A stretch of 32,000 nt of DNA from Pyrodictium abyssi (GCF_036323395.1 NZ_AP028907.1:480001-512000), one strand, 5' to 3'. Shown: positions 5,099 through 20,232, counted from the stretch's first letter. Notes: a model not told the origin generated them from the sequence alone. Program-made: numbers and translations.

Positions 5099-5299
5099 GC
5101 AGGCGAGGAACCATCGGGGGCTTGATGCGGAGTTAGTACAAGCGGCTATAAAGTATAGCCCGGCAGGGTGCCGGGGCTAAAAAGTGAGGAGCATTATGCG
5201 GATCCACTATAATCGTCTAGCTGACGCTGTACAAGCATACGCTGAACACCAGCCGGTTAGGGTATTCTGGCCGCGTTCGGCCGACAGCCGGTCGGGGCG

Positions 5300-6248: not shown

Positions 6249-6254
6249 ACTGCT

Positions 6255-6926
6255 ATGCCGGGGGGAAGCAGCACTAGTGATAATAGTGGTGGCGCTGGCT
6301 CGGGCCCCGGTCCCCTGGGGAAGCTGGCCGGGAGATCCGGGCTCTGGAGCCTCCTCTTCGCAGTGCTCGGGCTCTGGCTGGCCGAGGCGGCTCACTACAC
6401 AGTGCTCGCTGCGCAGCTCCACGGCGTGTCGGGGCTACGGGCCCTGCTCCTATACGCGCAGGTGGCGGCGCTGGGTGCCCCTCTCGCGGTGGCGCGGTGG
6501 CTATTCTACATGGGCGGGCTCTGGCTCTTCGCATGGCTCCTTGGCGTGCGTGGCCTCGACGGCCGCCGCGCGCTCGTAGCAGCCTCCTACACGGCTCTAG
6601 CACACGCGCTGGCAGCGCTCGCTGCTACGCCGCTATGGCTGGTGGCGGGGCAGGAATGGGCGCGGCAAGTGGTGGCTGCTAGCTACTACGGCTCCCTGGC
6701 CGCTGCGGCCGCTGCGCTCATCTGGGCCGGCGGCCGCGCAGCCGGGGGCTACGGGCCCCGCATAGCCTTGGCCTCTATTGCCTCTGTGCTGCTCGTGGGT
6801 ATGCCGCCGGCGGCGCTGCTTACGCCGGGGTTCAACGCGTACGCTAGCATACTGTACCTGGTGTCTGGCGGGGGTGCTGGCGCAGCCGTTAACGCTACAG
6901 CTGCTAGCACTACGCCAGGCGGGTAA
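6255..6926 (+). CDS. Ala/Leu-rich integral membrane protein, unknown function
   Basis: 223 aa with about 5 hydrophobic helices. The SD-like GGAGGG lies about 8 nt upstream of the ATG. The region is very GC-rich, so several overlapping ORFs exist. This frame is preferred for its TM pattern and SD. Confidence 0.5.
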   Translation: MPGGSSTSDNSGGAGSGPGPLGKLAGRSGLWSLLFAVLGLWLAEAAHYTVLAAQLHGVSGLRALLLYAQVAALGAPLAVARWLFYMGGLWLFAWLLGVRGLDGRRALVAASYTALAHALAALAATPLWLVAGQEWARQVVAASYYGSLAAAAAALIWAGGRAAGGYGPRIALASIASVLLVGMPPAALLTPGFNAYASILYLVSGGGAGAAVNATAASTTPGG

Positions 6927-7169: not shown

Positions 7170-8366
7170 ATGGCTAGGGGCTCCATGAGGCTAGACGTTA
7201 GGCGATTTGGCCGTACTAGGCTGGCCGGTGCAGTAGTTGTAGCCGCTGCAGCGCTAGCAGCATTGATAGCGTTCGCCTCGTTAACGGTGAATATTGACGC
7301 GTCTAAGGCCTATGCGGAGCTCGCCGAGAGCGGGTACACTATTACCAGCAGCAAGCTGTTTAGCGAGAAGGTGCTGGGCGCTCAGGGACCAGTAGCCGTC
7401 ATGTTCCGCTCCGAGACGTGCCCGATGTGTGAGCGCATGTACCCCTACTGGAGGGTGGTCGAGGAAAAGGCTCTGGAGCTAGGCTTTAGAGCGTACGATG
7501 TGAAGCTGACTAGGGAGACTAGCCGGGTCTTCGACCGGTACAGGGTGCACGACCTCCCAACATTCATAGTGTTCTACGGCGGCGAGCCGGTTGCAAGGCA
7601 CGTCGGCGCGTTCACGCCGGATGACGGGAACATAACTAGGGCTATGATAGAGTGGGTAACGGCGTCGATCCAGGGTAGCCGGCTGGAAGCAGCTGTAGAG
7701 GAGCAGGGGCCCCAGGCCCAGCAGCCGGGCCAGGAGTCCTCGCCGTTCACTACTCTAGCAGCTTCCGTAGCCACGGCGTTGACTGCGGGTGTTGTGGCCT
7801 CGCTCTCTCCCTGCGTCCTACCGCTGCTAGTCACCAATAGCGTTGCCTTAGCCAGGCGCGGCAAGGGCCCGGGCATAGCGGGCTGCCTGGCGTGTAGCCT
7901 ATCCGCGTTTGCCGGCGTGATGGCTGTTGGCGTGGTCTTTCTCCTGGCTTCTAGCCTCCTCGCGGAGGTACAGACAGTGGTTATGAGCGTCGTAGCCGTG
8001 GCTGTCGTAGCGGCGGGCGTGTCGTCGCTGCTAGGCCTACCGGCCGAGATTCCGAGCTCGCGTAGAATCCGCTCCGGCAGCCTGGCCGTATTCTGCGGGC
8101 TCTACGGGTTCCTAGCTCTCCAGTGTAGCCTCCCCATAGTCGTCGGCGCGTTGCTACTAGTGCTGGGTAGCGGGGGCCCGGGCAAGGGCCTAGTGGTGCT
8201 TCTCGCTTTCTCGCTAGGCCTCTCCCTGCCGCTATCAGTAGCCCTGCACCTCGGCCCCCGTATGGCCGCTCTGACAGGCCGGGTAGAGATGCTCGAGAGA
8301 GCTGGCGGCGTGGTAATGGTCCTCGCCGGGGCGGTCCTCCTAGCCCATAGCCTTGGCCTCATCTAG
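7170..8366 (+). CDS. ccdA: Thioredoxin-domain / CcdA (DsbD-family) fusion, thiol-reductant transporter for cytochrome c maturation
   Basis: 398 aa. N-terminal TM anchor, then a thioredoxin fold with CPMC (residues 84-87, nt 7419-7430) and DLPTFIVF. A Gln/Pro linker follows, then a 6-TM CcdA core with both signature cysteines (LSPCVLPLL and LQCSLPIVV). It lies immediately upstream of ccmF. Confidence 0.85.
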   Translation: MARGSMRLDVRRFGRTRLAGAVVVAAAALAALIAFASLTVNIDASKAYAELAESGYTITSSKLFSEKVLGAQGPVAVMFRSETCPMCERMYPYWRVVEEKALELGFRAYDVKLTRETSRVFDRYRVHDLPTFIVFYGGEPVARHVGAFTPDDGNITRAMIEWVTASIQGSRLEAAVEEQGPQAQQPGQESSPFTTLAASVATALTAGVVASLSPCVLPLLVTNSVALARRGKGPGIAGCLACSLSAFAGVMAVGVVFLLASSLLAEVQTVVMSVVAVAVVAAGVSSLLGLPAEIPSSRRIRSGSLAVFCGLYGFLALQCSLPIVVGALLLVLGSGGPGKGLVVLLAFSLGLSLPLSVALHLGPRMAALTGRVEMLERAGGVVMVLAGAVLLAHSLGLI

Positions 8367-8384
8367 CACAGTGTCATAGCCCCC

Positions 8385-11384
8385 ATGCATGGGGTGGTGT
8401 CCTGGATGGCCTTGCACTATACTGGTATAATCCCCGCACTAGCTGCCCTCGTCTACACGACTGCACTGTACATGCTACTCCGCCGCGATATCGGCACAGC
8501 GTCTAGGCTGGTGAAGTGGGCTTCTATGTTCACGGTGGCGGGCTGGCTAGTATACCTGGTCCCGTTCGTTACGCTAGACTATAGCCTGGAAGAGGTCTTC
8601 TGGAACACAAGTCCCGGGCTCCCCCTCTGGATGAGGATAGCGTCGGCGTGGGCTGGCGGCGGTGGCAGCCTCTACTTGTTCGCGGCAATATCGGCAATAG
8701 CCACGCTCTATATTGCCCGTGGCCTAGCCGAGGCCAAGAAAAAGGATGTACTGGTTACCGGGGCAGCAGTAGTGACTCTGGCTGCTATAGTGGGCGCGTT
8801 TGCTAACGGCGCCTTCAGCGTCATGGAGGAGCGCCCTGCTAGTGGTGCGGGGCTTAACCCGCTGCTGAAGAGCCCGTGGCTCTACCCGCACCCCCTCAGC
8901 ACCTTCGGCGGCTACGCGCTACTCTCAATAGGCATGGTGGCGCTCCTCGCAGGCCTACGGCGCCGCGGCCTACTAGTCTACGAGCTTGGCTGGGCCCTCC
9001 TGACTCTCGGCATAATGCTGGGCGGGTACTGGAGCTACGAGACCTTCGGCTGGGGCGGCTACTGGGCCTGGGACCCCGTCGAGACAAGCGAGCTAATGGT
9101 GTGGCTCGCTGCTACACTGCTACCCCACGTCATGGTGGCTGTGCCGAGCCTAGCCGCGTTCACCGAGTACCTGACCCTATCTAGCGTGTTCCTCGCGATG
9201 TACGTGACGCGTAGCGGGCTCAGCCCGCTACACAGCTTCGCCGCGGCTAACCTAGGCGTGGCTATGCTACTAGTAGTTGCTCTAGTAGCGCTTTTCCTAG
9301 CGTTCCGCCGGCTAGGCGAGCTCCGCTTCCCCGGGCTAGATAGGGTGAAGAGAAGCCCCCTCCAGGCGGGCATGCTAGCGGCCACTATAGCGCTCTTCGC
9401 GGCAGCAATATTTGTCTACGCTACACTGCTCCTCCCGTCAATGCTCACAGTGGTAGGCGTCGAGGCTACAGTGCCGCAGATGCAGAGTGGTGTACGCTAC
9501 TTCCACCCCGTGCTATACCCGCTACTAGTAGCTATGCTGGCGGCGATACCGCTAGCGTTCATAGGTGACAGGATAGGATGGAGAGGCTACGCTGCGCTGC
9601 TAGCGGCGACGTCTATAGCCTCGGTTGTAGCCGGCGCTGCAGCGCTCAGCGGCGCTCTCATGCTGACTCCTCTCAGCAGTAGCGCGACTAACGCTATGAT
9701 GGCCTTCGGGCTCCCCTGGGCAGGCCTTGCCGCTGCAGCAGTACTACTCTACATAGCCTTGCGGCTACGCGGAGGCAAACTCGTATCGGAGCGCATGACT
9801 GCTATCAGTCTGCTACACCTAGGCCTCGCAGTCACCGTCATAGGTGTACTGCTCAGCGGTACGCACTCGTTCAACGAGGCCTACTTCATAGACGCTAGCA
9901 TGAAGCCCGGTGAGCCAGTCATCCTACCAAATGGCCTGAAGATAGAGCTGGTCGGCTACGAGTTCGAGCTAAGTAACTCCACGGTGGATATATACACGGG
10001 CTATGCGGGGCGCTCGCTCAGCTACATACTCGCCTGGGACGCGCTAGCAGCTCTAGCCTCGGACTACAGCAAGAAAATAGAGCAGGTGCACGAAGCCGAG
10101 AAGCTGCTAGGATCCAACGAGACACTGCGGAGCCTTGCTGAGCTAGCTGCAGAGACGCACATCTCCACAGTCAACGGCAGCATCGCCATAAAGGGCGCCG
10201 CCAGGGTAACCGGTATAGACATGTTCACGGGAGCCGAGACTCCAATAGCAGATAGTGCTGACATAACAATAGAGCTCGTAAACCCGAGTGTCACAGTAGC
10301 GATAGAACCCGTGCAGGACAGCATGGGTAGGGTTAAGTCAGCCAGGTTCCGCCTCTACGTAACAGCCGATGAGGCCGCCGTAGCGGGGCTCCCAGGAGGC
10401 AACATTACGGCACGGACGGTGCTCGACGTCACGTTCGCGGAGCCGGTACGGCTTACAGTGGGCAGAGTATCGCTAGAGATAAGCCACGTGTACGTCCTAG
10501 CGATGGCAACGGGGTCGACCGGCCACCCTGCTGTAGAGCAGCGCGACGGAGTGCTCGTCTATAAGCCAGCTCTACTGGTCCCAAGCGGCAGCATGGAGGT
10601 AGGGGCGCTAACCGTAGCAGTCCCGCTGGACGTGCCGGCCAGCATGGCAGGGTACGTGGAGAGCTGCCGCGACCCGCTGCTCCAGAGGCTGCTCGGGAGC
10701 AGCCTAGCAGAGGCACTCGCCAACGGCGCAGCGCTAAAGGCTCTAAACCCGCCCGATTGCCGGCCAACAGCAGAGACCCCCCATGGAATCTGCCCCGGCT
10801 ACATAGATGTGCCCCACACAGTCCCGGAGACAGCGTGGCTAGTCCTAAAGCTGCGCATAGAGCACGGCGGCGACGTCCGCGAGGAGACCGTTAGGCTACG
10901 CTTCGAGTCATATGGAGAGGTTCAGGGCATACACGGCCTAGTAACCAAGGTCATACACCCGCGGGTAGGGCTTACGGACGTCTACATAGCCATACACGCG
11001 CCAGTAGTCACACCGGACTGGGGGGTCACCGGGTACCACGAACTGCTGGTATACTATCTCCACGCCGTATACCAGTCGATGAACCTAACGCCTGCCCAGC
11101 GCATAGCTCTAGCAGCCCTGTTCGCGTCAGGCTACATGATGGATACCGCATCGTCGATAAACGATAGGATGCAGCGCAGCCTATTCCTAGAGCATGCTGC
11201 TATCGAGCTCTACCTGCTAGCGGAGGACTTCAGCCCCGAGAACTCGACTATAGCCAGGCAAGGGCTCCCTGTCCAGGTTAAGCTCGTCCCAGGCGTAGCC
11301 CTGGTATGGTACGGCGCCGTTATGATGGCCGTTTCGGCTGTCTATGCTGCTGTTGTTGCGGCCTATACAGCGAGGAGGAGTTAG
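8385..11384 (+). CDS. ccmF: Cytochrome c-type biogenesis protein CcmF (heme lyase) with greatly expanded extracytoplasmic domain
   Basis: 999 aa. WWD heme-handling motif WSYETFGWGGYWAWDPVETSELMVWL. Also present: upstream GLNPLLKSPWLYPHP (P-His1 region), downstream ATLLPH (P-His2), RSGLSPLHSF, and LLHLGLAVTVIGVLLSG (TM-His2 region). All are collinear with E. coli CcmF as I recall it. A C-terminal TM ends in ...ARRS. Confidence 0.9.
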   Translation: MHGVVSWMALHYTGIIPALAALVYTTALYMLLRRDIGTASRLVKWASMFTVAGWLVYLVPFVTLDYSLEEVFWNTSPGLPLWMRIASAWAGGGGSLYLFAAISAIATLYIARGLAEAKKKDVLVTGAAVVTLAAIVGAFANGAFSVMEERPASGAGLNPLLKSPWLYPHPLSTFGGYALLSIGMVALLAGLRRRGLLVYELGWALLTLGIMLGGYWSYETFGWGGYWAWDPVETSELMVWLAATLLPHVMVAVPSLAAFTEYLTLSSVFLAMYVTRSGLSPLHSFAAANLGVAMLLVVALVALFLAFRRLGELRFPGLDRVKRSPLQAGMLAATIALFAAAIFVYATLLLPSMLTVVGVEATVPQMQSGVRYFHPVLYPLLVAMLAAIPLAFIGDRIGWRGYAALLAATSIASVVAGAAALSGALMLTPLSSSATNAMMAFGLPWAGLAAAAVLLYIALRLRGGKLVSERMTAISLLHLGLAVTVIGVLLSGTHSFNEAYFIDASMKPGEPVILPNGLKIELVGYEFELSNSTVDIYTGYAGRSLSYILAWDALAALASDYSKKIEQVHEAEKLLGSNETLRSLAELAAETHISTVNGSIAIKGAARVTGIDMFTGAETPIADSADITIELVNPSVTVAIEPVQDSMGRVKSARFRLYVTADEAAVAGLPGGNITARTVLDVTFAEPVRLTVGRVSLEISHVYVLAMATGSTGHPAVEQRDGVLVYKPALLVPSGSMEVGALTVAVPLDVPASMAGYVESCRDPLLQRLLGSSLAEALANGAALKALNPPDCRPTAETPHGICPGYIDVPHTVPETAWLVLKLRIEHGGDVREETVRLRFESYGEVQGIHGLVTKVIHPRVGLTDVYIAIHAPVVTPDWGVTGYHELLVYYLHAVYQSMNLTPAQRIALAALFASGYMMDTASSINDRMQRSLFLEHAAIELYLLAEDFSPENSTIARQGLPVQVKLVPGVALVWYGAVMMAVSAVYAAVVAAYTARRS

Positions 11385-11543: not shown

Positions 11544-12527
11544 ATGGATCGCACGAATCTCGTTATTCTAGTGTTACTCGTGGCCTTGGCGGTCTCAAAT
11601 GCGGCATGGATAACGCTATACAGTCACAGCAAGTACAACGTGGAGAACCTAATCAGCGAGAACCAGAGGCTAAGCCGGCAGCTAGAACTACTCGCTAGCA
11701 GGGTGAAAGAACTAGAAGACAACAACACAAAACTCCTGCTCCAGCTCCGCGACATAAGCGACCATTACAAGAGGCTCCTAGACCTAATACAACAGGCTAA
11801 CAGCACAATAGCGAATGCAGCCGTCGTGGCCAGGCTACTGGATAACATAAACGCGAGCCTAACAACGCTATACATGTACACCAATACTCACGCATACTAT
11901 ACCCCCAACGTGAGGAGTCTATTCACGCCGGGCACTGTAGCAGACCTAGTAGTGCCGATAACCGGGCATCCAATGTACAATAGGGAACATGCGCTCGAAG
12001 ACATGAGGAAGATGTATGACTGGGTGCAGGAGAACATACAGGACGCAGTGGACCACAACTTTGTTGCAATAAAGAGGCCGGAATACGTGGACATAAACGG
12101 TGCGAAGTACTTCTATAGCTTCCAGATAGACATAGTGGATAACTATATACAGTCACCGTCGGAGACCCTACAGCGCTTGGCAGGCGACTGCGAGGACCAG
12201 TCCATACTGCTAGCATCAATGTACAAGGTCTACCTGGACAATGTCGGCGACGCGTGGACGCTCTGCATGTTCTCGGAGAAGTACGACCACTGTATAGTCG
12301 TGGCCTGGGTGGCCCCCCAGAAGAAGTTCGTGATAGCTGATCCCACGCTGGACTACTATGCTGAGGCGGATAGTCTGCGCAGTGCTCTAGACGACTGGCT
12401 AGCCTACGTGGGGATGGAGATGAAGCAAATCCATAGAATGATAGTATTCAACAATAAAGACTACATAGAGGATGTGTCCTACAACGTGATACACGCTCTC
12501 GAGGAGAAGACTAGCAGACAAAGCTGA
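11544..12527 (+). CDS. Membrane-anchored transglutaminase-like cysteine protease superfamily protein
   Basis: 327 aa. N-terminal TM, a coiled-coil stretch (ENQRLSRQLELLASRVKELEDNNTKLLLQL), then a Cys-His-Asp core: GDCEDQSILLASMY (Cys216, nt 12189-12191), YDHCIVVAW, VIADPT. GC is lower than in the neighbours (about 50% in three hand-counted 60-nt lines). Confidence 0.78.
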   Translation: MDRTNLVILVLLVALAVSNAAWITLYSHSKYNVENLISENQRLSRQLELLASRVKELEDNNTKLLLQLRDISDHYKRLLDLIQQANSTIANAAVVARLLDNINASLTTLYMYTNTHAYYTPNVRSLFTPGTVADLVVPITGHPMYNREHALEDMRKMYDWVQENIQDAVDHNFVAIKRPEYVDINGAKYFYSFQIDIVDNYIQSPSETLQRLAGDCEDQSILLASMYKVYLDNVGDAWTLCMFSEKYDHCIVVAWVAPQKKFVIADPTLDYYAEADSLRSALDDWLAYVGMEMKQIHRMIVFNNKDYIEDVSYNVIHALEEKTSRQS

Positions 12528-12541
12528 GGAGGTGGACGGTT

Positions 12542-13276
12542 ATGCCCCGTATGGCCGCTAGCCTGGTCGCTATAGCGATAATCGTGCTAGCGAGCATCGC
12601 GACGCCTACACTAGCCGAGCAGACTATAAAGGTGAAGGTCTACCACGCTGAGCTAGGCCCGTTCATCCAGACGCTAGCCGATGGGCGCAGGATAGAGGTA
12701 GAGATAGACGTCTACTACCCTGACACACTCTTCTACAGAGGCCCCGAAGAGGGCCTAGGCACAGTGAATTTCACGATAACAACCAACTGGACCGGGCCGT
12801 GGGACGGCATAGTAACAGTGCAAGTAGTAGACCCGGGGTACCGGATTGACCCCACCACGCTCAAGCCTGTAGAGTCTATGAACGCGTGGGCGGAAGGGGG
12901 AGGCACTATAGGCACAGGGACTCTCCACATAGCAAGCGGGGCCTATACCGGCCCCGTCAAGAACGTAACTGTCGTCGTAAGGCCGCACTCGCGCTACTTC
13001 ACAGCGCCCGCCGGCGACTATGTCGCCCAGTACTTCTTCAAGGTGAGGCTCGCCTTCTTCAAGCCTAGCGGCAGCAAGGTGCTAGGTGGCGACGTCAACG
13101 TCTACACCGATAGCCAGACAGCGCCCGCAGTCAAAGTAGTCGTCATAAAGCAGCCTAAAGGGGACGAGGGCCTAGCAAGCTCGGTAGCGCTCAACGCTGC
13201 TATAGCTGCAGCAGTTGTAGCAACAGGGTACGCGGTAGTCGAGTATACCCTAAGGCGCAGGAAGGAGAAACACTAG
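12542..13276 (+). CDS. Secreted beta-rich protein with C-terminal membrane anchor, unknown function
   Basis: 244 aa. Signal peptide ...ASIATPTLA|EQ, C-terminal TM (AIAAAVVATGYAVVEY) and a basic tail RRRKEKH. A strong SD (GGAGGTG) precedes the ATG, 14 nt after the previous stop. Confidence 0.65.
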   Translation: MPRMAASLVAIAIIVLASIATPTLAEQTIKVKVYHAELGPFIQTLADGRRIEVEIDVYYPDTLFYRGPEEGLGTVNFTITTNWTGPWDGIVTVQVVDPGYRIDPTTLKPVESMNAWAEGGGTIGTGTLHIASGAYTGPVKNVTVVVRPHSRYFTAPAGDYVAQYFFKVRLAFFKPSGSKVLGGDVNVYTDSQTAPAVKVVVIKQPKGDEGLASSVALNAAIAAAVVATGYAVVEYTLRRRKEKH

Positions 13277-13583
13277 TAGCCCCAGGCCAGCCTCCGGGGC
13301 GCCCCGCCAGGTTATCCAAGTGTTTTTACCCCCGGGCTTCGAGGGCGGCCGTTCCCTACTCCTATGCGGCGTACCCCGTGACGACGGGCTCTCTTGCGGG
13401 ATGCTGTCCATGGTGTCGTAGTCATCCCAGCTCCCCGGCCTGTGCGGCCTTTGTCGAAACACTGTACTAGGGTGCTCTTCTACTCTTGGCTTATTTATCG
13501 CGAGTTGAAATGCATTGACCGTTCCTGGACGGAGACAAGATTTTATTATAGGATTCAAATATCTTGCTCGCGGAAAAAATAAT

Positions 13584-13599
13584 AAATTAAATTTAAATA
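13584..13599 (+). promoter_or_regulatory. Putative TATA/BRE promoter element of the octaheme cytochrome gene
   Basis: AAATTAAATTTAAATA sits in an AT-rich block about 50-64 nt upstream of the ATG at 13648. The SD-like GGTGAGAGG lies at 13639-13647. Confidence 0.45.
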
Positions 13600-13647
13600 A
13601 CATGTAGAACCCATAGTGAACGTGGAGCAACAGAGTATGGTGAGAGG

Positions 13648-15636
13648 ATGCAGAAGCCTCTAGCCAAGGTAGTAGTCTTTTGGGTGATATCCATCTTCCT
13701 CCTCCCCAGCCTAGCGCCCCTAGCGCAGGCAGCGACATACAGCTGGGGCGAGGAGATCAGCCTCTCCGGTGTACAGCTCACGCAGGAGTCCAAGGACTGT
13801 GTAGAGTGTCACATGCGGGCGACACCCTTCATAGTGTACGACTGGTACAAGAGCAAGCACCGCATGGTTGGCGTGGGCTGCTACGAGTGCCACAGCGCTA
13901 AGCCCGGCACAAGGCCCGACGTCTACGAGCACTACGGCTACTACATAACGACACTAGTGACGCCTAAGCAGTGTGGCCGCTGCCACCCTGCGATAGCAGA
14001 GGAATTCCAGAAGAGCGTCCACGCGTTCGCCGGAGTACACGCCTACGTGCTAAAGGAGGAGCCAGCATACTGGATGATCCTGGCGAAGCAGTTTGGCTGG
14101 GACGAGCACTTCAAGGTACCAGCCGAGTACATTGAGACCGAGTGGGTACCCAAGATAGTGCGCGACTTCGTGGGTGACCAGAAGTACGGTAAGGCGGTGC
14201 TAGAGGAGGACCCGACCAACGCCATAATACCGTACAACCCGCTAGGCCTAAGCATTGACAACTACGTTGCCCAGAAGGCACTCTACATCTGGGGCATACG
14301 CGGCTGTCTAGGATGCCACGGCGTGCGCATGGACGTCAAGGACGCGTTCGCCTACCCGAGCCTAGACGAGCTAATGAAGTACATGAAGGAGGGCAAGGCC
14401 CCCGAGAAGGTAGTATACGACCCAGCATTCATGCACAACCACGGCATCGGCCGTGTGAACCCCGACGGCAGCCTAGGCAGCTGTGAGGCGTGCCACCCGT
14501 ACCACGGCTTCAGCGTAAAGATAGCCAGGAAGGGCGCCTACCAGGCATGTGGCCGCTGCCACACCGGCCCCGACCACCCGAACGACGAGCAGTGGAGCAA
14601 GAGCGTCCACGGCGCAATATTCTGGGGCGAGGCTGAGGACTGGGACTGGGACAAGCCGGTAAACAACTGGATGCCAGGCCGCGACTACAGGGCGCCGACA
14701 TGTGTAACCTGCCACATGGCCGCAGTGTTCAACGAGCGCGGTCAGGTCAAGTACGCTAGCAGCCACGACGTAGCCATAATAAGCAAGTTCAAGCTAGGCA
14801 AGTGGGTCTACACGCTACCACGTGTAGCAGGCCTACCCGACTTCGCCATACCGACAGCCACTGCGACACAGGCGCCGGTGTTCAAGAGTCCGACAACCGG
14901 TGACACAATAACGCTAGTATACCCAGAGCCCGACTGGAAGGTGCGCAGACAGAGAGCAATCGACATGTGTGCCCAGTGCCACACCAAGGAGTATGCAGCT
15001 GCATGGCTGAAGACCTACGACTGGATGATAATACTAGTAGACTACATGAGAGACGAGTACGTGCTAACCATAGCCAACATGCTGAAGGCTAAGGGCCTGT
15101 TTACGCCAATGGACGAGTGGATGGTGAGGAACCTAGGCGCTATGGCCAACAGGCCTACCAAGATGTCTGCAGCGCACTTCGGCCCCGACTTCACCTGGTG
15201 GGAGGGCATAATGCACTTCGCCGAGAAGATAGAGGAGTGGCTAATCGACGTCTACGAGAGGCCTGCTGTAGCCAAGAAGGCGCCAGAGATACGTGAGAAG
15301 ATTGAGGAGATACTGCCATGGTTCAGGGAGCAGTGGGAGGGCGAGGGCAGCACTGGTACAGTTCACACCCTAGCAGAGGTGAAGACAACTCTAGCTAAGG
15401 CCGTCGAGGTACCGGGCATGAAGGCCTATGCGGAGAAGGTGGAGAAGCTAGAGACGCCAGCTAAGCCACTAGTAACTAAGGCTGCTGTAACCACCGTAGG
15501 CGAGGTAGGCGAGCACAGCCTAGCACTACCGGGCGATGAGGCCAGTGTGGAGATGCCAGTGGCTATCTCTGCTGTGTTCCCGGCAGCGCCTCTACTACTA
15601 GTACTAGTGTCCTTTAGGAAGCGTGTAGCAGCCTAA
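13648..15636 (+). CDS. Octaheme cytochrome c of the hydroxylamine oxidoreductase (HAO) family, signal peptide plus C-terminal TM anchor
   Basis: 662 aa with eight CxxCH motifs: CVECH, CYECH, CGRCH, CLGCH, CEACH, CGRCH, CVTCH, CAQCH. Flanking context is collinear with Nitrosomonas HAO as I recall it: KDCVECH..TP..V..W..S.H; C..CH..H.FS; CHTGPDH....W..S.HG; APTC..CHM. Signal peptide ...LAQA|AT. The C-terminal hydrophobic helix plus FRKRVAA resembles the HAO C-terminal anchor. Confidence 0.9.
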   Translation: MQKPLAKVVVFWVISIFLLPSLAPLAQAATYSWGEEISLSGVQLTQESKDCVECHMRATPFIVYDWYKSKHRMVGVGCYECHSAKPGTRPDVYEHYGYYITTLVTPKQCGRCHPAIAEEFQKSVHAFAGVHAYVLKEEPAYWMILAKQFGWDEHFKVPAEYIETEWVPKIVRDFVGDQKYGKAVLEEDPTNAIIPYNPLGLSIDNYVAQKALYIWGIRGCLGCHGVRMDVKDAFAYPSLDELMKYMKEGKAPEKVVYDPAFMHNHGIGRVNPDGSLGSCEACHPYHGFSVKIARKGAYQACGRCHTGPDHPNDEQWSKSVHGAIFWGEAEDWDWDKPVNNWMPGRDYRAPTCVTCHMAAVFNERGQVKYASSHDVAIISKFKLGKWVYTLPRVAGLPDFAIPTATATQAPVFKSPTTGDTITLVYPEPDWKVRRQRAIDMCAQCHTKEYAAAWLKTYDWMIILVDYMRDEYVLTIANMLKAKGLFTPMDEWMVRNLGAMANRPTKMSAAHFGPDFTWWEGIMHFAEKIEEWLIDVYERPAVAKKAPEIREKIEEILPWFREQWEGEGSTGTVHTLAEVKTTLAKAVEVPGMKAYAEKVEKLETPAKPLVTKAAVTTVGEVGEHSLALPGDEASVEMPVAISAVFPAAPLLLVLVSFRKRVAA

Positions 15637-15652
15637 GGGGGCGGTGAGGGCT

Positions 15653-15677
15653 GGGGAGGAGACCCTCCCCTCTTTTT
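15653..15677 (+). terminator. Hairpin plus T-tract terminator after the octaheme gene
   Basis: GGGGAGG (15653-15659), loop AGAC, CCTCCCC (15664-15670), then TCTTTTT (15671-15677). It begins 17 nt after the TAA stop. Confidence 0.6.
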
Positions 15678-15891
15678 ACCGCGGCCTAGGCCCCTCCTGC
15701 GCCCCTATCGGCGCCGCCGTGAATCCACCTCGGCCTGTCTTAATATTTGTGTTCGTTAGCCTCTGGCAGCGTGTATACGTCTAGCCGATAGCCCTGGCTC
15801 GGGGCTGTTTCTTAGCTGGAGCGTTGGCGTCGAAGCGTTTAGCTTTATCAAGGGTTACAGATGCTCTTGACCACTGGTAGGGGGAGGCTTA

Positions 15892-17772
15892 TTGTACTGG
15901 GAGCCCGTGCTGTACCTAGCTCTGCTGTCCGAGGCTGTTGCGGCAGCACTTGCTATCCGCAGGGGGATGTGTGAGGGCTATGATAAACAGCTCGAGTCGA
16001 GCCCCATATACCGTGTAGGCTTTGTGCTTGTGTTGATGTCTTTTATCCTCGCTATGCGCTTCGACGTGATGGTGACAATACCCAGCCTTATGCTCCTAGC
16101 TTCCAGCCTAGCTGTACTAGCCGGAACCAGGCTCAGAGCCAGGATGAGCCCGGTTGAGGTACTTGGCTCGGCTATAGCGTTCTACTCTTTCGCACTTGCT
16201 TCACTTGCCGCCCGCGGCGCAGTGCTTGACATAGATCCGCGTGGTAAGGGGCTGCTGCCCTGGATTCTGGTGGCGCTTTCGGCTGGGCTAGGCCTCTTGT
16301 CGGCTCTATCTACGCTAGAGAAGCCCCGCAGGGGCATAGCTGCTTTCATGGGGCTGCTAAGCGGCGTGGGCCTCGTGGCTCTTGGCTACTGGCTGCTCAT
16401 AGAGACGCGTGTCGGAACGCCATTGTACAGTGATGCTCTAGGCTCTGCACTGCTTGCTCTGCTGCTCACCGGCGTCGCTATAGCATCTGGGCTGTCTCCG
16501 TACCTCGTCATGGCAGCTGGTATACTGGCCGGTCTCTTTGCTAGCCGCTCGCTACTGGCAGGCGGTGTGCCATACATCGCGTGTACTGGTAACTGTGGCT
16601 CGCTCGCTGTGGCGTGGCTTATCTTCTCGGTTATCGTGGCTCTGCCCCGGCTATACCTAGAGGCTGCTGAGATGCATGATAGGATACGCTCAGCGGACGT
16701 AAACGTGGCCCTATCACCCCCTGTGCTGGCATCTGCTTCAGTGCTTGCCGCTGGGATTGCAGCGTGGGTGGCGGCTCAAGGCACTGTGGGTATAGCCCCT
16801 ATGGCGGTCGTTGGTATACTTGCTGCAGCTGCTGCTGTCGGCTCTGCTGCCGTAGCTGTACTCCTCGTTGGGGGCGCTGTTGCTGTCTACAGCCCGGTGC
16901 TAGGCCTCATCGCGGCTGCTGCTGTAGCTCTTGTATTCACAGTGCTGCGGGGCCGAAGCATCGGCTTCTTCTCGGCCCCGAAGAGCGTCCTCCCCGGGCT
17001 ACTGCTCGTAGCCGTAGGGCTTGCAGCTGGAGGCTACATCGTCGCTACCCTGGGCCACGTGTCCGAAGCCAAGGCGTCTATTGAGGTGTCCGGCCTAGGC
17101 TCCCTGGCTCCCATACAGCCGCCGAGCGATGAAGCTACCCATGCGTTCTTCCAGCTCTACCTCGGCGTCAAGAACGAGACTATACTCTACGCTATCCTCG
17201 AGCCAACTGTGGGTGAAGAGGAGGCTCTAAGGATGGTTGAATTTGTCCATGCTATCAGGGTTGCTGCCGAGAAGAGAGGCATCCAGGACCCCTACAATAT
17301 AACCGAGCTTGACATACCACGCGAGATGCCGAGCCTGAAAGCGGTACTCGATGTTAATGGCATGCACGTCCCCGTGGAGATACCTGCCTCTAGTGTACTG
17401 TACGGCCATCCCTTCAATACTAGGGTCATCCAGGCTGGGCTAGACCTCGTCTCTGTAGGGCTTCCCGGTAATGCTACGAGCGCGCTGACTAGCGCCTACC
17501 TTGGTATGATCTCTGACCCGGGCCTCGTGGATGGGGATGCTCTGCGCTACTCCTTATTCGCGGCCATGGCTGTTAGCTGGAGGGAGACGGGCTCGCTCAA
17601 CATGACGGCTCAGCTGATGTTCGACATGTTGCTGGGCAACGTTTCCGGGTCCGGCACCGTAGTGGCGGGTGTTGATATTGCTAGGGCTCCGTTAGGGGTG
17701 CTAGCGCTAGCAGTATACGGGGCGTGTATAGTTGCCGCTCCCTTGGCTCCTATTTTTGCGCGCCGTAACTAA
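15892..17772 (+). CDS. Polytopic membrane protein with about 200-aa extracytoplasmic domain and C-terminal TM, unknown function
   Basis: 626 aa with a TTG start preceded by GGAGG (15883-15887). About 12 Ala/Leu/Gly-rich TM helices occupy the first 390 aa or so. A soluble domain with N-x-T/S sequons (NET, NIT, NAT, NMT, NVS) follows, then a terminal TM and ARRN. No heme or Fe-S motif is seen. Confidence 0.7.
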   Translation: MYWEPVLYLALLSEAVAAALAIRRGMCEGYDKQLESSPIYRVGFVLVLMSFILAMRFDVMVTIPSLMLLASSLAVLAGTRLRARMSPVEVLGSAIAFYSFALASLAARGAVLDIDPRGKGLLPWILVALSAGLGLLSALSTLEKPRRGIAAFMGLLSGVGLVALGYWLLIETRVGTPLYSDALGSALLALLLTGVAIASGLSPYLVMAAGILAGLFASRSLLAGGVPYIACTGNCGSLAVAWLIFSVIVALPRLYLEAAEMHDRIRSADVNVALSPPVLASASVLAAGIAAWVAAQGTVGIAPMAVVGILAAAAAVGSAAVAVLLVGGAVAVYSPVLGLIAAAAVALVFTVLRGRSIGFFSAPKSVLPGLLLVAVGLAAGGYIVATLGHVSEAKASIEVSGLGSLAPIQPPSDEATHAFFQLYLGVKNETILYAILEPTVGEEEALRMVEFVHAIRVAAEKRGIQDPYNITELDIPREMPSLKAVLDVNGMHVPVEIPASSVLYGHPFNTRVIQAGLDLVSVGLPGNATSALTSAYLGMISDPGLVDGDALRYSLFAAMAVSWRETGSLNMTAQLMFDMLLGNVSGSGTVVAGVDIARAPLGVLALAVYGACIVAAPLAPIFARRN

Positions 17773-17850
17773 ATTAAATGAATAATTGTTTGTGCTGAAT
17801 GTATCGATATTTTTGAGACAAAGGCTAAAAGTATTGTCAATGCTTTTTCC

Positions 17851-17857
17851 TATAAAA
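17851..17857 (+). promoter_or_regulatory. Putative TATA box of the 13-14-heme cytochrome gene
   Basis: TATAAAA lies 23-29 nt upstream of the ATG at 17880, inside a 107-nt AT-rich intergenic region. GGAGGGG at 17864-17870 could alternatively act as an SD. Confidence 0.45.
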
Positions 17858-17879
17858 CCGGCGGAGGGGTGAAGCCGCC

Positions 17880-19151
17880 ATGGACGCTAGGCAAGCTGCT
17901 AGAACAGTGGTAATAGTAGCTGTATTCTTAGTAGCGCTGCTAGGCTACTGGCGGCTGACGTTACCAGGCTACTTTGAAGGCATGAGCCTCTGTGGCGAGG
18001 GCTGCCATGTAACCAACACCCTCGACTACAAGAAGATTACACACCCGTTCTGGTGCATTGGCTGCCACGGATTCGGTGTCAAGAGCGAAATTATGCCGGG
18101 GATACCGCTGCAGCGAGACCCCGAGATAGAGATGCTTGTCGAGGAGCACGGTGAATGCGTCATGTGCCACAGTGTGCCCGGAGAATTCCACTGGAAGCAC
18201 ATCAACGCCACCGAGGAAGAACTAGCCAAACTAGGGCTAGAGCGTCCAGTGCAGTGTACAGACTGCCACACCACAGCCTATCACGGCGGCCACAAGGATA
18301 TGCCTAAAGACGACTCGTGTCTCAAGTGCCATGATACTGAGAAGCTCCATCCAGACATGAATAAGAAGCTTGTCTCAGCGTGTACCAAGTGCCACTCCGA
18401 GGAGCCCGCGGTAGACTGGACTGTGTTCAGAAAGGGCCAGCTGGGCTATGGCTTCGTAGCCGATGCTGGCCTAGCTCTAGCCTCCGACATAGGTGTCGTG
18501 AAGTCTGTGGCTCCTGGCTGCCTCCTATGCCATAACACGCCGGAGGCACAGGGGCACATAAAGCATGTAGGCAAGAAGTACGAGGGTAGAGAAGTAGACT
18601 GTCTCGATTGCCACAGGAACGATATACCGCACGGCGAGAAAGTGGGAACCAGTGTATGTCTCGACTGCCACCAGCCCGGTGAAGTAAAGTGCCACGATGT
18701 TAACTTCGAAGAGTATCTCGTCGACTGCTACAAGTGCCACGGCGGCTTCAAGCTCGCCAACGAGACGCTATACCTAACCGGAGTCGGGTGTAGGGGCTGC
18801 CACGCTGATACACTCAAGAAGATAACAAGCCTAGGACTACACCTCAAACACACAAAGTACTTCAACTGCGATAAGTGCCACGACATCGAATCTGGCAGCC
18901 ACAAAGCCTTCGTAGAGTCTGCCGGTGATGTGGAGAAGTGTCTAGAATGCCATACAGAGGCAGGAGGCGTAAAGCCAGAAGCACTCAAGGATATCAAATC
19001 CACGGTTGCGCTAACCTTCAGCGAGGACATAAAGCACGTAGACCTCGTGAAGAGGGCCGACGGTAACTGCTTCAAGTGCCACGATGAATGGTATGTCAGC
19101 GGCAAGCCCAAGGTATTCTACTACAAGGTGCAAGATAGTGATAAGGGCTAG
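17880..19151 (+). CDS. Membrane-anchored multiheme cytochrome c (13 CxxCH + 1 CxxxCH)
   Basis: 423 aa with an N-terminal TM (TVVIVAVFLVALLGYW). Motifs: CGEGCH (CX3CH, nt 17991-18008), then CIGCH, CVMCH, CTDCH, CLKCH, CTKCH, CLLCH, CLDCH, CLDCH, CYKCH, CRGCH, CDKCH, CLECH, CFKCH. About 29 His in total, enough for bis-His ligation of every heme. Confidence 0.92.
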   Translation: MDARQAARTVVIVAVFLVALLGYWRLTLPGYFEGMSLCGEGCHVTNTLDYKKITHPFWCIGCHGFGVKSEIMPGIPLQRDPEIEMLVEEHGECVMCHSVPGEFHWKHINATEEELAKLGLERPVQCTDCHTTAYHGGHKDMPKDDSCLKCHDTEKLHPDMNKKLVSACTKCHSEEPAVDWTVFRKGQLGYGFVADAGLALASDIGVVKSVAPGCLLCHNTPEAQGHIKHVGKKYEGREVDCLDCHRNDIPHGEKVGTSVCLDCHQPGEVKCHDVNFEEYLVDCYKCHGGFKLANETLYLTGVGCRGCHADTLKKITSLGLHLKHTKYFNCDKCHDIESGSHKAFVESAGDVEKCLECHTEAGGVKPEALKDIKSTVALTFSEDIKHVDLVKRADGNCFKCHDEWYVSGKPKVFYYKVQDSDKG

Positions 19152-19172
19152 CTTTTGCGCTACTTGTCCCGC

Positions 19173-19200
19173 CTTATGGTTAGAAACTTATGGTTAGAAA
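19173..19200. repeat. Perfect 14-bp tandem direct repeat (CTTATGGTTAGAAA x2)
   Basis: Read directly: 19173-19186 equals 19187-19200. It lies in the 80-nt gap between the multiheme gene stop (19151) and the next start (19232). Confidence 0.9.
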
Positions 19201-19231
19201 AGGATGTGTCCCCGGGGGTGCCGTGTAGGCC

Positions 19232-19978
19232 TTGAGCACGGTTAGGACCGAGGCCGCGGGTAGCCAGGCCCCCAGCTGGCTCCAGGAGCATCTGTGGCTC
19301 CGCCTACGCGCCTTATTCGACCTAGTGCTGCAGCTCAGCGTGCTCCGGCGCCGCCGTGATATAGGCGAATGGCTGGTTGTATGGCTTACATACCTGGGCA
19401 TAGTCGGCGCCATACTAATGGCCATAGTAACGGCTGCGACGAGGGGCGTAATCCTAGCCGCGAACACGGTTCTAAGGCCGCATGCGCTGCCGATAATCAG
19501 CCCAGAGCTCGAGAAGATATTCATAAGCTGGCCTCAGCTAGCCATAGGTATGGGGTACCACGCGCACATAATTACAGCGCTATACTTCGCAGCCCCAGCG
19601 TACACAGCCGCCTTCATCGCAGCCTTCCTGTTGAAGGACGAGTGGCTGCGCAAATTCCTATTCCCAAGGGGGATAAACATTAGGGATCTGTCTGACCACC
19701 TGCTGCTAGTGCTGAGCTTCGCCACGGCCGTCATGGTCGCGGTGATAGCGCCCAGGATGGCTGCTAGCGGTGCACTAGTGCCGGGGCTCCAGGCGCTAGC
19801 CCCGCATATAGCAGTAGGGACCTTCTGGATAATCTACTCCCTAGCGATACGCGGGCTGGCATACCGCATCGTCGGCGCGGCACTAGGACTGCTATACGTG
19901 GTGATCTTCAACCACTACCCGAGGGAGGCCTTCCGGGACCTGTTCGAGGAGGACCCCTGGGTAAGCCTACTACGCTAA
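19232..19978 (+). CDS. His-rich 5-TM membrane protein (candidate b-type cytochrome / quinol-interacting subunit; function unproven)
   Basis: 248 aa with a TTG start of uncertain position. About five TM helices carry His at or near the helix ends (GYHAHIITALYF, DHLLLVLSF, APHIAVGTFW, NHYP). It is co-oriented with and immediately downstream of the multiheme cytochrome. Confidence 0.55.
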   Translation: MSTVRTEAAGSQAPSWLQEHLWLRLRALFDLVLQLSVLRRRRDIGEWLVVWLTYLGIVGAILMAIVTAATRGVILAANTVLRPHALPIISPELEKIFISWPQLAIGMGYHAHIITALYFAAPAYTAAFIAAFLLKDEWLRKFLFPRGINIRDLSDHLLLVLSFATAVMVAVIAPRMAASGALVPGLQALAPHIAVGTFWIIYSLAIRGLAYRIVGAALGLLYVVIFNHYPREAFRDLFEEDPWVSLLR

Positions 19979-20232
19979 CAGGGTAGTGCCGAGCCCAATA
20001 GGCTGAATGGTTTTTGCACCCACGTATCCGCTTAAGCTAGGCGTGGCCCCACCTGTTCCCCTGTGCAGGTCCTCAGTATGCCTCCAGGGGCCCTTGTTTA
20101 CGCGGTAAGGGCTCATGATGTGTCTCTGGTTGTGCAGCCGCGAGCCTCTTAGCTGGTAGGGCCCACGGCTGTGCCTGGCACCAACTCCTCCCACCGGGGC
20201 CGGCTAGCTGCCTAGACAAGGGCTGTAGGGCT

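Follow-up and report, generated by a model that had tools for sequence, protein, structure and literature searches.

How is the cytochrome gene cluster of Pyrodictium abyssi related to the hao-orf2-cycA-cycB cluster of ammonia-oxidising bacteria, and in which direction would electrons flow through it? In the stretch of DNA analysed here (the window; 32,000 nucleotides), an HAO-like gene is followed by genes for a polytopic membrane protein, a multihaem cytochrome and a second membrane protein. An earlier note had seen in this order (13648-19978) the functional logic of the bacterial cluster with partners that look non-homologous, and had proposed either an ancient shared module or a convergent, undescribed electron-transfer chain.

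Identity and extent of the cluster

The features of the window that are considered below are as follows.

7170..8366, + strand: protein with a thioredoxin domain (Pfam PF00085, 32 bits) and, C-terminally, a polytopic membrane part
8385..11384, + strand: CcmF/NrfE-family haem lyase-like protein, 999 aa (PF01578, TIGR00353)
11544..12527, + strand: tg, anchored in the membrane, with a coiled-coil stalk and a cysteine protease domain of transglutaminase fold (LapG/BTLCP-like)
12542..13276, + strand: h244, secreted, C-terminally anchored protein of 244 aa with N- and C-terminal hydrophobic segments
13535..13605, + strand: promoter-like AT-rich region, read from the sequence, in which TATA-like TTTAAATA precedes the g1 ATG by about 50 nt
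13648..15636, + strand: g1, IhOCC-type HAO-family octahaem cytochrome c (eight CxxCH, PF13447, 4QO5)
15653..15677, + strand: terminator-like GC hairpin and T5 tract directly after g1
15892..17772, + strand: g2, orphan polytopic membrane protein (hydrophobic segments, no database match)
17773..17879, + strand: AT-rich g2-g3 spacer (37% GC); contains T5 tracts and the conserved element CCTATAAAAC
17880..19151, + strand: g3, N-terminally anchored 14-haem cytochrome c (CxxCH count, weak HmcA/ActA/c7 similarity)
19232..19978, + strand: g4, orphan 5-TM protein with invariant H110, H112, H156 and H192
20011..20015, + strand: T5 tract, 33 nt past the g4 stop

The four ORFs g1-g4 lie on the plus strand where the earlier note had placed them and carry the locus tags PABY_05270-05300 (the PABY_05260-05300 proteins matched proteins of the window exactly). 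By sequence comparison, their orthologues in Pyrodictium delaneyi are Pyrde_0784-0787, the putative respiratory complex called "Mcc". Identities to strain Su06 of P. delaneyi were 94% for g1 (Pyrde_0784) and 64% for g2 (Pyrde_0785), and those to the copy in a P. delaneyi MAG (L011) were 71% for g3 and 84% for g4. The cluster of P. delaneyi, which was named in 2021 by Kashyap & Holden and for which the role of a menaquinol-fed cytochrome complex was proposed (PMC8105010), consists of direct orthologues with the same order and proposed role, so the chain is not an undescribed one. Pyrolobus fumarii also has direct orthologues in the order seen in P. abyssi (Pyrfu_0785-0788); we counted 8 and 13+1 haems in its cytochromes, compared with the 11 and 6 given in PMC8105010. 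Left unremarked in that paper are the kinship with HAO and IhOCC, the absent cross-link Tyr, the CX3CH of the 14th haem, the two conserved upstream genes and the conserved terminator-like element after g1.

Every relative sampled shows the order tg-h244-g1-g2-g3-g4. It holds in each of the 14 archaeal loci that were recovered, for as much of the block as their flanks cover, and these loci represent seven lineages besides the window; L011 has all six genes in the same order, and the synteny of tg holds in every lineage with enough flank. The conserved block is thus longer than 13648-19978, since it also takes in the two upstream genes (11544-13276). Gene order persists where identity has fallen to 49% for g1 and to 49% for g4, and no relative of g2, g3 or g4 without a nearby g1 was found among the loci with a long enough flank. 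In the L007/L015 lineage, about 5 kb of PIN, PaREP1 and MFS genes split g1 from g2-g3-g4. As all the related lineages accessible to sampling have it, the arrangement is more than chance. The co-occurrence analysis across archaeal genomes that the earlier note had proposed therefore identifies the four genes as a conserved, co-occurring unit, and the outcome against which that note had cautioned, no co-occurrence outside this genome, did not arise.

Of the two upstream genes, tg has the invariant residues C216, H249 and D266, and its profile matched the LapG-like 4U65 (E = 4e-4); the L007 orthologue carries a DUF553 annotation. As a candidate HaoB, tg was rejected (hhalign probability 0.18%). 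The orthologues of h244 hold the same position and are 38-54% identical, and h244 itself had no match in Pfam or PDB.

The HAO-family cytochrome and the nitrifier cluster

The g1 product (662 aa) has an N-terminal signal-like segment, eight CxxCH motifs that are present in all the orthologues as well, and a C-terminal part made up of a linker of about 80 aa and a TM anchor at residues 633-657. The earlier note was right to call it HAO-like: PF13447 scored 64.6 bits against a cut-off of 21.9, and the best solved relative was IhOCC of Ignicoccus (4QO5; E = 8e-47), followed by HAO and HDH entries. Other solved relatives included 6H5L (E = 3e-23) and NeHAO (E = 8e-12). By these predicted features, g1 is a secreted HAO-family octahaem cytochrome tethered by its C-terminal helix. 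In the alignment, NPGGWTY467 of NeHAO stands opposite GPDFTWWEG of g1, with Trp in the column of the cross-link Tyr. All seven archaeal sequences aligned (g1 and six orthologues) have Trp in this column, in which the control, HaoA of R. pomeroyi, has Tyr. Since g1 has Trp at the position of the P460 cross-link Tyr, it belongs to the non-oxidising IhOCC/epsilon-Hao type and is predicted not to oxidise hydroxylamine. Being closest to 4QO5, without the P460 Tyr and associated with the membrane, it is assigned from its sequence to the IhOCC type. IhOCC (Igni_0955 of Ignicoccus hospitalis) falls within the HAO/HDH/IhOCC structural clade and lacks the P460 haem (PMC9250108). Both proteins are archaeal, hyperthermophilic and membrane-associated, whereas g1 exceeds IhOCC by about 140 residues and has an internal insertion, the long C-terminal linker and the TM segment.

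In layout the nitrifier and archaeal clusters agree: both open with an HAO-family octahaem cytochrome and then have, in turn, a membrane protein, a multihaem carrier and a component bound to the membrane. However, the HAO-family enzyme is the sole component that the archaeal cluster shares with bacterial hao-haoB-cycA-cycB, so the suspicion of non-homologous partners was borne out and the idea of an ancient shared module was not. HaoB has 335 aa and a single N-terminal TM segment, whereas g2 has 626 aa and is polytopic. The model TIGR04392 (haoB_nitrify), which gives a real HaoB 380 bits, matched neither g2 nor four of its orthologues at E ≤ 10, and the profile comparison with HaoB suggested earlier for 15892-17772 gave an hhalign probability of 0.08%. 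Nitrifier c554 is a soluble tetrahaem cytochrome, whereas g3 is an anchored 14-haem cytochrome of a c3/c7/HmcA-like kind, with 14 haem sites against 4 and no match to the c554 model (PF13435). Nitrifier cM552 (CycB) is a tetrahaem cytochrome of the NapC/NrfH type; NapC/NirT/NrfH proteins were sought by an N-terminal TM segment, four CxxCH and a match to PF03264, TIGR02161 or TIGR03153. In contrast, g4 has no Cys and no haem-c motif, and hhalign with a NapC/NirT protein gave 0.3%. The partners g2-g4 were absent from the gene neighbourhoods of bacterial g1 homologues, and the nearest bacterial relatives of g1 have porin, HaoB or NapC genes in place of the archaeal partners.

A true counterpart of the nitrifier cluster would draw electrons from the oxidation of hydroxylamine or of a related N compound and pass them to the quinone pool. 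We consider this very improbable here. In its favour, g1 and nitrifier HAO belong to one enzyme family, the gene types follow one another in a superficially similar order, and transcription of the enzyme gene seems, as in nitrifiers, to be separate from that of the carrier gene. Against these likenesses stand the Trp in place of the Tyr that defines oxidising HAO and HDH, the unrelated g2, g3 and g4, and the lack of all these partners beside the nearest bacterial relatives of g1. The hosts, moreover, are strict anaerobes and are not known to have ammonia monooxygenase. Because g1 lacks the cross-link Tyr of nitrifier HAO, electrons probably flow in the opposite direction to that in nitrifiers, which departs from the shared functional logic supposed earlier; the resemblance probably concerns layout only, not ancestry or electron-flow direction.

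The multihaem carrier and two orphan membrane proteins

The carrier g3 (423 aa) has an N-terminal TM segment, 13 CxxCH motifs and one CGEGCH (CX3CH), in agreement with the 13-14 haems counted before. All 14 haem motifs are invariant in eight orthologues, and so are 12 further His. The CX3CH is the site of the first haem, about 10 residues past the membrane helix and beside an invariant YW...PGY motif of the membrane interface (Y23, W24, P29, G30 and Y31). Pfam matches were Cytochrom_c3_2 and Cytochrome_C7, and weak similarity was found to HmcA (E = 4e-5), ActA (E = 4.5e-3) and also c7. Residues 1-179 had no match to the NapC/NirT/NrfH family at E ≤ 10, no NapC or NrfH model was matched in a whole-protein NCBIfam scan, and hhalign of the N-terminus with NapC/NirT gave a probability of 4% over an internal stretch only.

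The g2 product was correctly described as a polytopic membrane protein of 626 aa. About 13 N-terminal TM segments are followed by a soluble domain of about 200 aa and a C-terminal TM segment (about 14 in total). The protein is fast-evolving; its extracellular domain is conserved and holds all five N-x-S/T sequons (residues 428-583). Eight g2 members had zero matches in Pfam, NCBIfam and PDB sequences even at E ≤ 10, and neither PF03916-type models nor solved NrfD-like chains revealed an NrfD/PsrC-type sequence match. The AlphaFold model of g2 is poor (pLDDT 35), and homologues were found solely inside this cluster.

The g4 product (248 aa) has about five TM segments and zero Cys. Of its earlier description as a His-rich 5-TM protein, the topology stands and the His-richness does not (7 His, 2.8%), though the four His listed above are invariant across all family members, the most distant included; H84 is replaced by Asp in one homologue. 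From topology reasoning, three of the four would be close to the outer face and the remaining one close to the inner. An outer loop between His and Trp residues is highly conserved (RPHALPIISP...SWPQL...GxHxH). None of 12 members matched Pfam or NCBIfam at E ≤ 10, and g4 had no match among PDB sequences at the same threshold. The comparison of 19232-19978 with cytochrome b families that had been suggested (NarI, FdnI, HybB, bc1 cyt b and others) thus returned no sequence match, and the spacing of the invariant His appears to fit no known di-haem b arrangement. Foldseek with the AlphaFold model of g4, a weak one (pLDDT 63), found nothing. Among 1.84 billion proteins the g4 family has four representatives; one of them is a fragment of 100 residues, and the other three, whose context is readable, map to this cluster. 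Since the readable ones all lie in this cluster, Ignicoccus evidently lacks g4. By these searches, g2 and g4 represent orphan families that occur in this cluster alone.

Could g4, g2 or both instead be maturation or assembly factors, attaching haem at the CX3CH of g3 or anchoring or glycosylating the cytochromes? This CX3CH is invariant and adjoins the membrane, and dedicated lyases for odd haem motifs are known, such as NrfEFG and CcsA1. Moreover, g4 lies immediately 3' of g3 in every locus, with a gap of 14-18 nt or a one-base overlap in four of the six lineages examined and a gap of 69-80 nt in Pyrodictium, and its conserved outer loop would suit such a role. A further point in favour is the presence upstream, in Pyrodictium, of a lyase-like gene and a thioredoxin-membrane protein gene. 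The product of 8385..11384 scored 69.5 bits with PF01578 (cut-off 29.9) and 120.7 bits (E = 8.5e-35) with TIGR00353 nrfE, whose whole-protein cut-off is 569, which identifies it as a family-level relative of CcmF/NrfE haem lyases. It is probably a second, cluster-linked CcmF paralogue; in strain Hulk, one of the two ccmF genes lies beside these cytochromes, and the ccmF-like gene is adjacent in L011 and about 3.4 kb 5' of the protease gene in L007. The product of 7170..8366, with TM segments at 203-398, looks CcdA/DsbD-like from its architecture and position and probably supplies reductant for cytochrome c maturation; its gene is linked to the cluster in Pyrodictium only. However, hhalign with the CcmF of the window revealed no similarity (0.65% for g4, 0.07% for g2), the WWD-type motif is absent, and the CcmF neighbour is missing from the cluster in Pyrolobus and in the long-flank MAG lineages L003/L004/L012, L005 and L021. 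In addition, g2 and g4 were detected as mature-cell proteins in P. delaneyi. A role of these proteins in maturation is therefore improbable in our judgement.

Putative transcription signals and the proposed electron path

The AT-rich region 5' of g1, of which a near-identical copy is present in L011, is promoter-like and may give g1 a promoter of its own. The hairpin after g1 has a 7-bp stem with six GC pairs and is followed by TCTTTTT. A T5+ tract lies 21-44 nt past the g1 stop in all six lineages, against a background of 0.5-2.9% of 60-nt windows. This conserved tract fits the separate regulation seen in P. delaneyi, in which proteomics found the g1 orthologue 60-fold up on ferrihydrite compared with nitrate and the g2 and g4 orthologues unchanged (PMC8105010). 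The earlier caveat that this terminator might indicate separate transcription units was thus apt. A haem-stained gel band of P. delaneyi contained g1 and not the other three proteins (PMC8105010). Of the six lineages examined, L015 has 49% GC in the g2-g3 spacer and the other five have 29-37%; with the CCTATAAAAC element common to the window and L011, the spacer is a possible internal promoter for g3-g4. Together, the T-tract after g1 and, in the Pyrodictium spacer, the T5 tracts and the TATA-like element could mean three or four independent transcripts.

Such signals also suit two separate units, in which g2-g3-g4 would be a constitutive quinol:cytochrome c oxidoreductase feeding several reductases, and g1, together with tg and h244, an independent enzyme of the cell surface and a mere neighbour. 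The T-tract, the promoter-like region, the distinct regulation of g1 in P. delaneyi and the intervening 5 kb in L007/L015 all agree with this, and the authors of PMC8105010 proposed that Mcc feeds other reductases. On the other hand, neighbourhood and order have outlasted the divergence of g1 and g4, and g2, g3 and g4 were not found apart from g1 where the flank was sufficient. Separate promoters do not preclude cooperation either, as hao and cycAB of N. europaea are separately promoted yet their products work together (PMC3772326). We regard two independent units as rather unlikely.

In the reading that we prefer, g2, g3 and g4 form a haem wire fed by quinol, and it supplies a terminal octahaem cytochrome, g1, whose induction is separate. 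Menaquinol from a membrane hydrogenase would be oxidised at the membrane interface of g4 and g3; g4 may bind haem b or provide the quinol site, and a scaffold role is possible for g2. Electrons would pass along the g3 haems to the octahaem g1, which would be transcribed and regulated on its own and would either be the terminal reductase or hand electrons on to acceptors outside the cell, Fe(III) oxide for example; N- or S-oxyanions are possible alternatives. P. abyssi itself is not known to respire iron or nitrate. The module would work like NrfH-NrfA, or like cM552-c554-HAO in reverse, with non-homologous membrane parts. Taken as one explanation, this mechanism and the view that the P. abyssi cluster is orthologous to the putative Mcc and encodes a membrane-anchored, multihaem module for electron transfer that is specific to the Pyrodictiaceae lineage seem to us somewhat likelier to be right than wrong.

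The module can be likened to epsilon-Hao and NrfHA, in which a non-P460 HAO-family or related multihaem reductase is quinol-fed through a membrane-anchored cytochrome c; on a Desulfobaculum plasmid, a NapC/NirT gene lies directly 5' of an HAO-like gene. Unlike those systems, the archaeal module has no NapC/NrfH signature in g3 or g4, and a 14-haem wire and two orphan membrane proteins stand in place of NapC/NrfH. Docking of a multihaem cytochrome c on polytopic membrane subunits is a design common to the archaeal module and to Hmc, Qrc and alternative complex III, but no NrfD/PsrC-like, NrfC-like or NarI-like subunit was detectable in the former. Finally, the T5 tract at 20011..20015, likely the end of a g3-g4 (or g2-g4) transcript, has counterparts after g4 in L001 and L003.

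A conserved six-gene block

The earlier note described four consecutive genes, and we confirmed this layout with its coordinates and plus-strand orientation. The anatomy of the products was also as described, except that g4 is not His-rich by composition (7 His in 248 aa, 2.8%). Together with two genes upstream, the features are as follows.

11544-12527: tg, LapG-like protease gene
12542-13276: h244, 244-aa anchored protein
13648-15636, plus strand: g1, HAO-family octahaem cytochrome of 662 aa with eight CxxCH motifs; its N-terminus is signal-like and its C-terminus forms a hydrophobic helix (from motif counts and hydropathy)
15892-17772, plus strand: g2, polytopic membrane protein of 626 aa with a long series of hydrophobic segments and no haem motif
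17880-19151, plus strand: g3, 14-haem cytochrome of 423 aa with a single helix at the N-terminus, 13 CxxCH sites and one CGEGCH (CX3CH)
19232-19978, plus strand: g4, 248-aa protein with about five hydrophobic helices, no Cys and seven His

The products of g1-g4 and the upstream 244-aa protein exactly matched BES80959-BES80963 (PABY_05260-05300) of the P. abyssi chromosome. An undescribed electron-transfer chain had been one of two suggestions, but the cluster already has a name. Kashyap & Holden (2021) called the orthologous Pyrde_0784-0787 of P. delaneyi a putative membrane cytochrome complex, "Mcc", proposed that it passes electrons from methylmenaquinol to molybdopterin oxidoreductases or other reductases, and noted a counterpart in Pyrolobus (PMC8105010). 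The finding is therefore solid but only moderately new: a HAO-family or multihaem reductase whose electron-transfer partners are in the membrane, known from the literature, in which two subunits are true orphans. The Pyrolobus complex was described with 11- and 6-haem cytochromes (PMC8105010); at the Pyrolobus fumarii locus L001 we counted eight CxxCH in the g1 orthologue (4775-6775) and 13 CxxCH plus one CX3CH in the g3 orthologue (8730-10001). A Logan assembly of the same species (L002) has g1 split into ORFs of 418 and 231 aa, probably by a frameshift or an assembly error.

Co-occurrence was assessed by tblastn over all fetched loci, read together with gene calls. The order tg-h244-g1-g2-g3-g4 is kept in a P. 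delaneyi MAG (L011), Pyrolobus fumarii (L001), a MAG labelled "uncultured Hyperthermus" together with two assemblies related to it (L012, L003, L004), and another two lineages from metagenomes (L005/L006 and L021). The four genes thus form a real conserved unit, as had been surmised, with their order kept across lineages. Since tg and h244 keep their order with g1-g4 across these lineages, the conserved block comprises six genes, not four. The positional conservation of tg and h244 (window 11544-13276; L001 2779-4511; L003 2452-4210; L005 2755-4541; L007 5983-7862) equals that of g2-g4. The most distant g4 homologue (L013/L014) again lies 3' of a g3-like cytochrome, and no members of the g2, g3 or g4 families were seen outside this context in the fetched loci.

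The tg product is anchored in the membrane and combines a coiled coil with a cysteine protease domain of LapG/BTLCP-like transglutaminase fold, in which C216, H249 and D266 are invariant and which matches PDB 4U65 (E=4e-4). The 244-aa protein h244 is C-terminally anchored and its fold has no assignment. Bacterial LapG frees a surface-anchored adhesin, and the octahaem cytochrome of Ignicoccus hospitalis (IhOCC) is present in both membrane and soluble fractions. By analogy, and as a speculation, the tg protease might cleave g1 or h244 at the C-terminal tether.

The two multihaem cytochromes

Pfam assigned g1 to the multihaem family PF13447 with a score over the curated threshold. Its closest solved relative is the membrane-associated IhOCC (4QO5, E=8e-47), followed by the Kuenenia HAO-like nitrite reductase 6H5L and then by true HAO and HDH structures. 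Oxidising HAO/HDH enzymes are marked by the P460 cross-link Tyr, Y467 in N. europaea HAO. We aligned g1 and its relatives with a bona fide HaoA encoded on the Ruegeria pomeroyi megaplasmid, in which "NPGGFTY" corresponds to the "NPGGWTY" that contains Y467. All seven archaeal sequences aligned have Trp in this column ("GPDFTWWEG"), and homologues from bacteria other than nitrifiers carry W, H or Q. Because Trp fills the cross-link column in all seven, g1 is, on alignment grounds, of the IhOCC/epsilon-Hao type and predicted to lack the P460 cofactor. This agrees with a late origin of the cross-link in the HAO/HDH subclade, as published (PMC9250108). An oxidative module of the true nitrifier kind is very unlikely here.

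The relationship of g1 to HAO and IhOCC was not recognised in Kashyap & Holden (2021) or in Demey et al. (2017), the latter describing the g1 orthologue as a "cytochrome c7 with an NrfH domain" and without known homologues. Kletzin et al. (2015) listed HAO-family cytochromes among archaeal multihaem proteins and reported that c-type cytochromes accompany the H2:sulfur oxidoreductase complex of P. abyssi through purification. Among bacteria, the proteins closest to g1 show 37-38% identity and neighbour a porin or a small unrelated protein, and a Desulfobaculum homologue is accompanied by NapC/NirT, the usual partner. The porin case (L008 6910-9602, GCA_054042805.1) has a Porin_5-family gene directly 5' of a g1 homologue of 37% identity, which hints at an outer-membrane pairing in that branch of the IhOCC-like clade.

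All 14 haem motifs of g3 are invariant in eight orthologues, at identities down to 41%. Twelve further His are invariant, a number sufficient for a predicted mostly bis-His ligation. Y23, W24, P29, G30 and Y31 are also invariant and cluster where the anchor helix ends. The CX3CH motif is the first haem site (residues 38-43, window 17991-18008), about 10 residues past the anchor helix, and its position is invariant in 8/8 orthologues, with variants including CSKACH and CAGGCH. The g3 profile weakly resembles the 16-haem HmcA, ACIII ActA and c7. The N-terminal 179 residues gave no NapC/NrfH signal at E<=10, and sequence comparison rejected a NapC/NrfH-like identity (hhalign probability 4% with a genuine NapC/NirT protein).

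In Pyrodictium, a fusion of thioredoxin with a membrane part and a CcmF/NrfE-like haem lyase of 999 aa lie directly 5' of the block (window 7170-11384); in L007 the lyase gene is about 3.4 kb from the block. Of the two ccmF genes of P. delaneyi Hulk, one is at this cluster, and at the Ruegeria hao-haoB locus a CcmF/NrfE lyase and DsbE come after (L017 8432-10519). The linked CcmF/NrfE-like protein may be a dedicated lyase for the CX3CH site of g3.

Two orphan membrane proteins and the nitrifier comparison

Secondary-structure prediction gave g2 about 13 helices up to residue ~398, a soluble stretch and one more helix at ~599-615. Homologues were found only inside this gene cluster, by word-index search and by scanning metagenomes with the profile of g2. 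Conservation is poor in the membrane part and good in a domain of about 200 residues (about 400-580). Because this domain is well conserved and holds all five N-x-S/T sequons of g2, it is most likely extracellular and glycosylated, as judged from sequence. In three MAG lineages (L003 195-2348, L005 426-2624, L012 8-2338), a polytopic protein of 717-776 aa lies just 5' of tg in the place of CcmF. It has a weak match to PMT_2 (GT-C glycosyltransferase) and a DEVWY motif, and it could glycosylate sequon-rich extracellular domains of the cluster proteins.

Homologues of g4 formed 12 clusters in a word-index search, all Pyrodictiaceae-like, and an exhaustive HMMER search with its profile found four family members among 1.84 billion representatives. 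A profile scan of genome contigs gave three loci; its patterns were probably too strict and the number is not a census. H110, H112, H156 and H192 are invariant even in the two most distant full-length members, in one of which H84 is replaced by Asp. A NapC/NrfH-like identity was rejected at the sequence level. The UniRef label "YihY/virulence factor BrkB family protein" looks unreliable, being reproduced by no Pfam or NCBIfam search even at E<=10.

Neither g2 nor g4 had a match at E<=10 in Pfam, NCBIfam (every family member) or PDB sequences (profile search). The AlphaFold2 model of g4 (12 sequences) was mediocre (pLDDT 63), and a Foldseek search of the PDB with it returned no match below E=1.7; the model of g2 (5 sequences, pLDDT 35) is meaningless as a structure. 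The two proteins are related neither to the neighbouring CcmF nor to one another. A role of g4, g2 or both as maturation factors, perhaps for the CX3CH haem with its invariant position, is our second alternative and seems improbable.

The earlier note had compared the cluster with the hao cluster of nitrifiers. The annotated HaoB at the Ruegeria locus is a 335-aa protein with one N-terminal helix and scores 380 bits with TIGR04392, the NCBIfam HaoB model. By contrast, g2 and four orthologues gave nothing in NCBIfam at E<=10, and hhalign gave g2 a probability of 0.08%, indicating no relation. The tg product resembles HaoB in size and topology (a single TM), yet it is no HaoB (hhalign 0.18%). 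The g3 product is not the c554 of nitrifiers and is not soluble, and g4 cannot be cM552 because it lacks a haem-c site. The suspicion of non-homologous partners was thus borne out, and that of an ancient shared module was not. At the sequence level, the Mcc-type and nitrifier clusters share the enzyme family and no further ancestry, bacterial g1 relatives have the neighbours described above, and nothing suggests an ancestral four-gene module. The likeness is an analogy at most, and electrons probably flow opposite to the nitrifier direction.

Transcription units and proposed electron flow

A hairpin with a T5 tract after g1 (15653-15677) was confirmed as a terminator-like element. A tract of T5 or longer occurs 21-44 nt past the g1 stop in 6/6 lineages, against a background of 0.5-2.9% of 60-nt windows in those loci. 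T5 tracts also lie 3' of h244 and g4, and g1 is preceded by an AT-rich, TATA-like region. The scan that supplied the terminator-like predictions also returned sigma-70 promoters, which were set aside because the host is an archaeon. Among six lineages examined, the g2-g3 spacer has a GC content of 29-37% in all but L015 (49%), and the element CCTATAAAAC in it is common to both Pyrodictium copies. The g3-g4 gap is 14-18 nt or a one-base overlap in 4/6 lineages and 69-80 nt in Pyrodictium. The T-tracts, spacers and promoter-like region fit the proteomics of P. delaneyi, in which the level of Pyrde_0784 (g1) was 60-fold higher with ferrihydrite than with nitrate, and Pyrde_0785 and Pyrde_0787 (g2 and g4) were detected at unchanged levels (PMC8105010).

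We prefer, with slightly better than even confidence, to read the cluster as a haem wire that is fed by quinol and ends in an octahaem under separate control. The observations behind it are the cofactor motifs, anchors, orientation clues, synteny and missing P460 Tyr. Quinol would be oxidised at the g4/g3 membrane interface, where the invariant His of g4 would bind haem b or form a quinol site and g2 would act as a scaffold. Electrons would then run along g3 to g1, a putative reductase or relay to an external acceptor.

The main alternative is that g1 and g2-g3-g4 are functionally separate neighbours. A more distant lineage (L007/L015, GCA_053988455.1; g1 and g4 each 49% identical) bears on it: about 5 kb of small genes part tg-h244-g1 from a g2-like gene that has diverged and has g3 and g4 after it.

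L007 10089-14950 / L015 1882-6743: insert between g1 and the g2-like gene, with an MFS transporter on the opposite strand, a PIN toxin and PaREP1

The insert splits the block exactly where the conserved terminator would be. Separate promoters are no argument against joint function, because hao and cycAB of N. europaea also have them (PMC3772326), and elsewhere the order is kept. We regard functional separation as possible, at rather low probability.

A more specific version of the quinol-fed wire is similarly tentative. Here g4, possibly with g2, would be an unrecognised quinol-reactive anchor of a new haem-b/metal-binding family, linking the menaquinone pool to the 14-haem cytochrome, and the octahaem fed by it would work outside the nitrogen cycle as a reductase of Fe(III) minerals or sulfur compounds, or as a relay, at ~100 degrees C. 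If true, archaeal extracellular electron transfer would gain a respiratory complex of new architecture. Octahaems of the HAO family are abundant beyond the nitrifier and anammox clades, where they have no assigned physiological role; a 2022 metagenomic study remarked that no role outside the nitrogen cycle had been suggested for any of them (PMC9213671). A HAO-family enzyme whose synteny with a long haem wire and two orphan membrane proteins is conserved, and whose P. delaneyi orthologue is induced on an iron mineral, is thus a rare lead. A quinol-to-mineral conduit would show how hyperthermophilic archaea export electrons without outer membranes, and would add one more membrane-anchor family to respiratory biochemistry.

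Two flanking features were also recorded. Directly 3' of g4 (20233-21315) lies a radical SAM/SPASM gene of the TIGR04084 (AF0577) family (415 bits); it is not kept beside the cluster in other lineages, and the radical SAM gene seen in Pyrolobus is another one, B12-binding and on the opposite strand. On the minus strand, 347-3772 and 5300-5734 encode a type IV pilus or archaellum-like assembly set unrelated to the cluster. It comprises an ATPase of the T2SSE/FlaI type (PF00437, 111 bits), two polytopic proteins resembling TadB/C and a 144-aa protein whose hydrophobic N-terminus is pilin-like.
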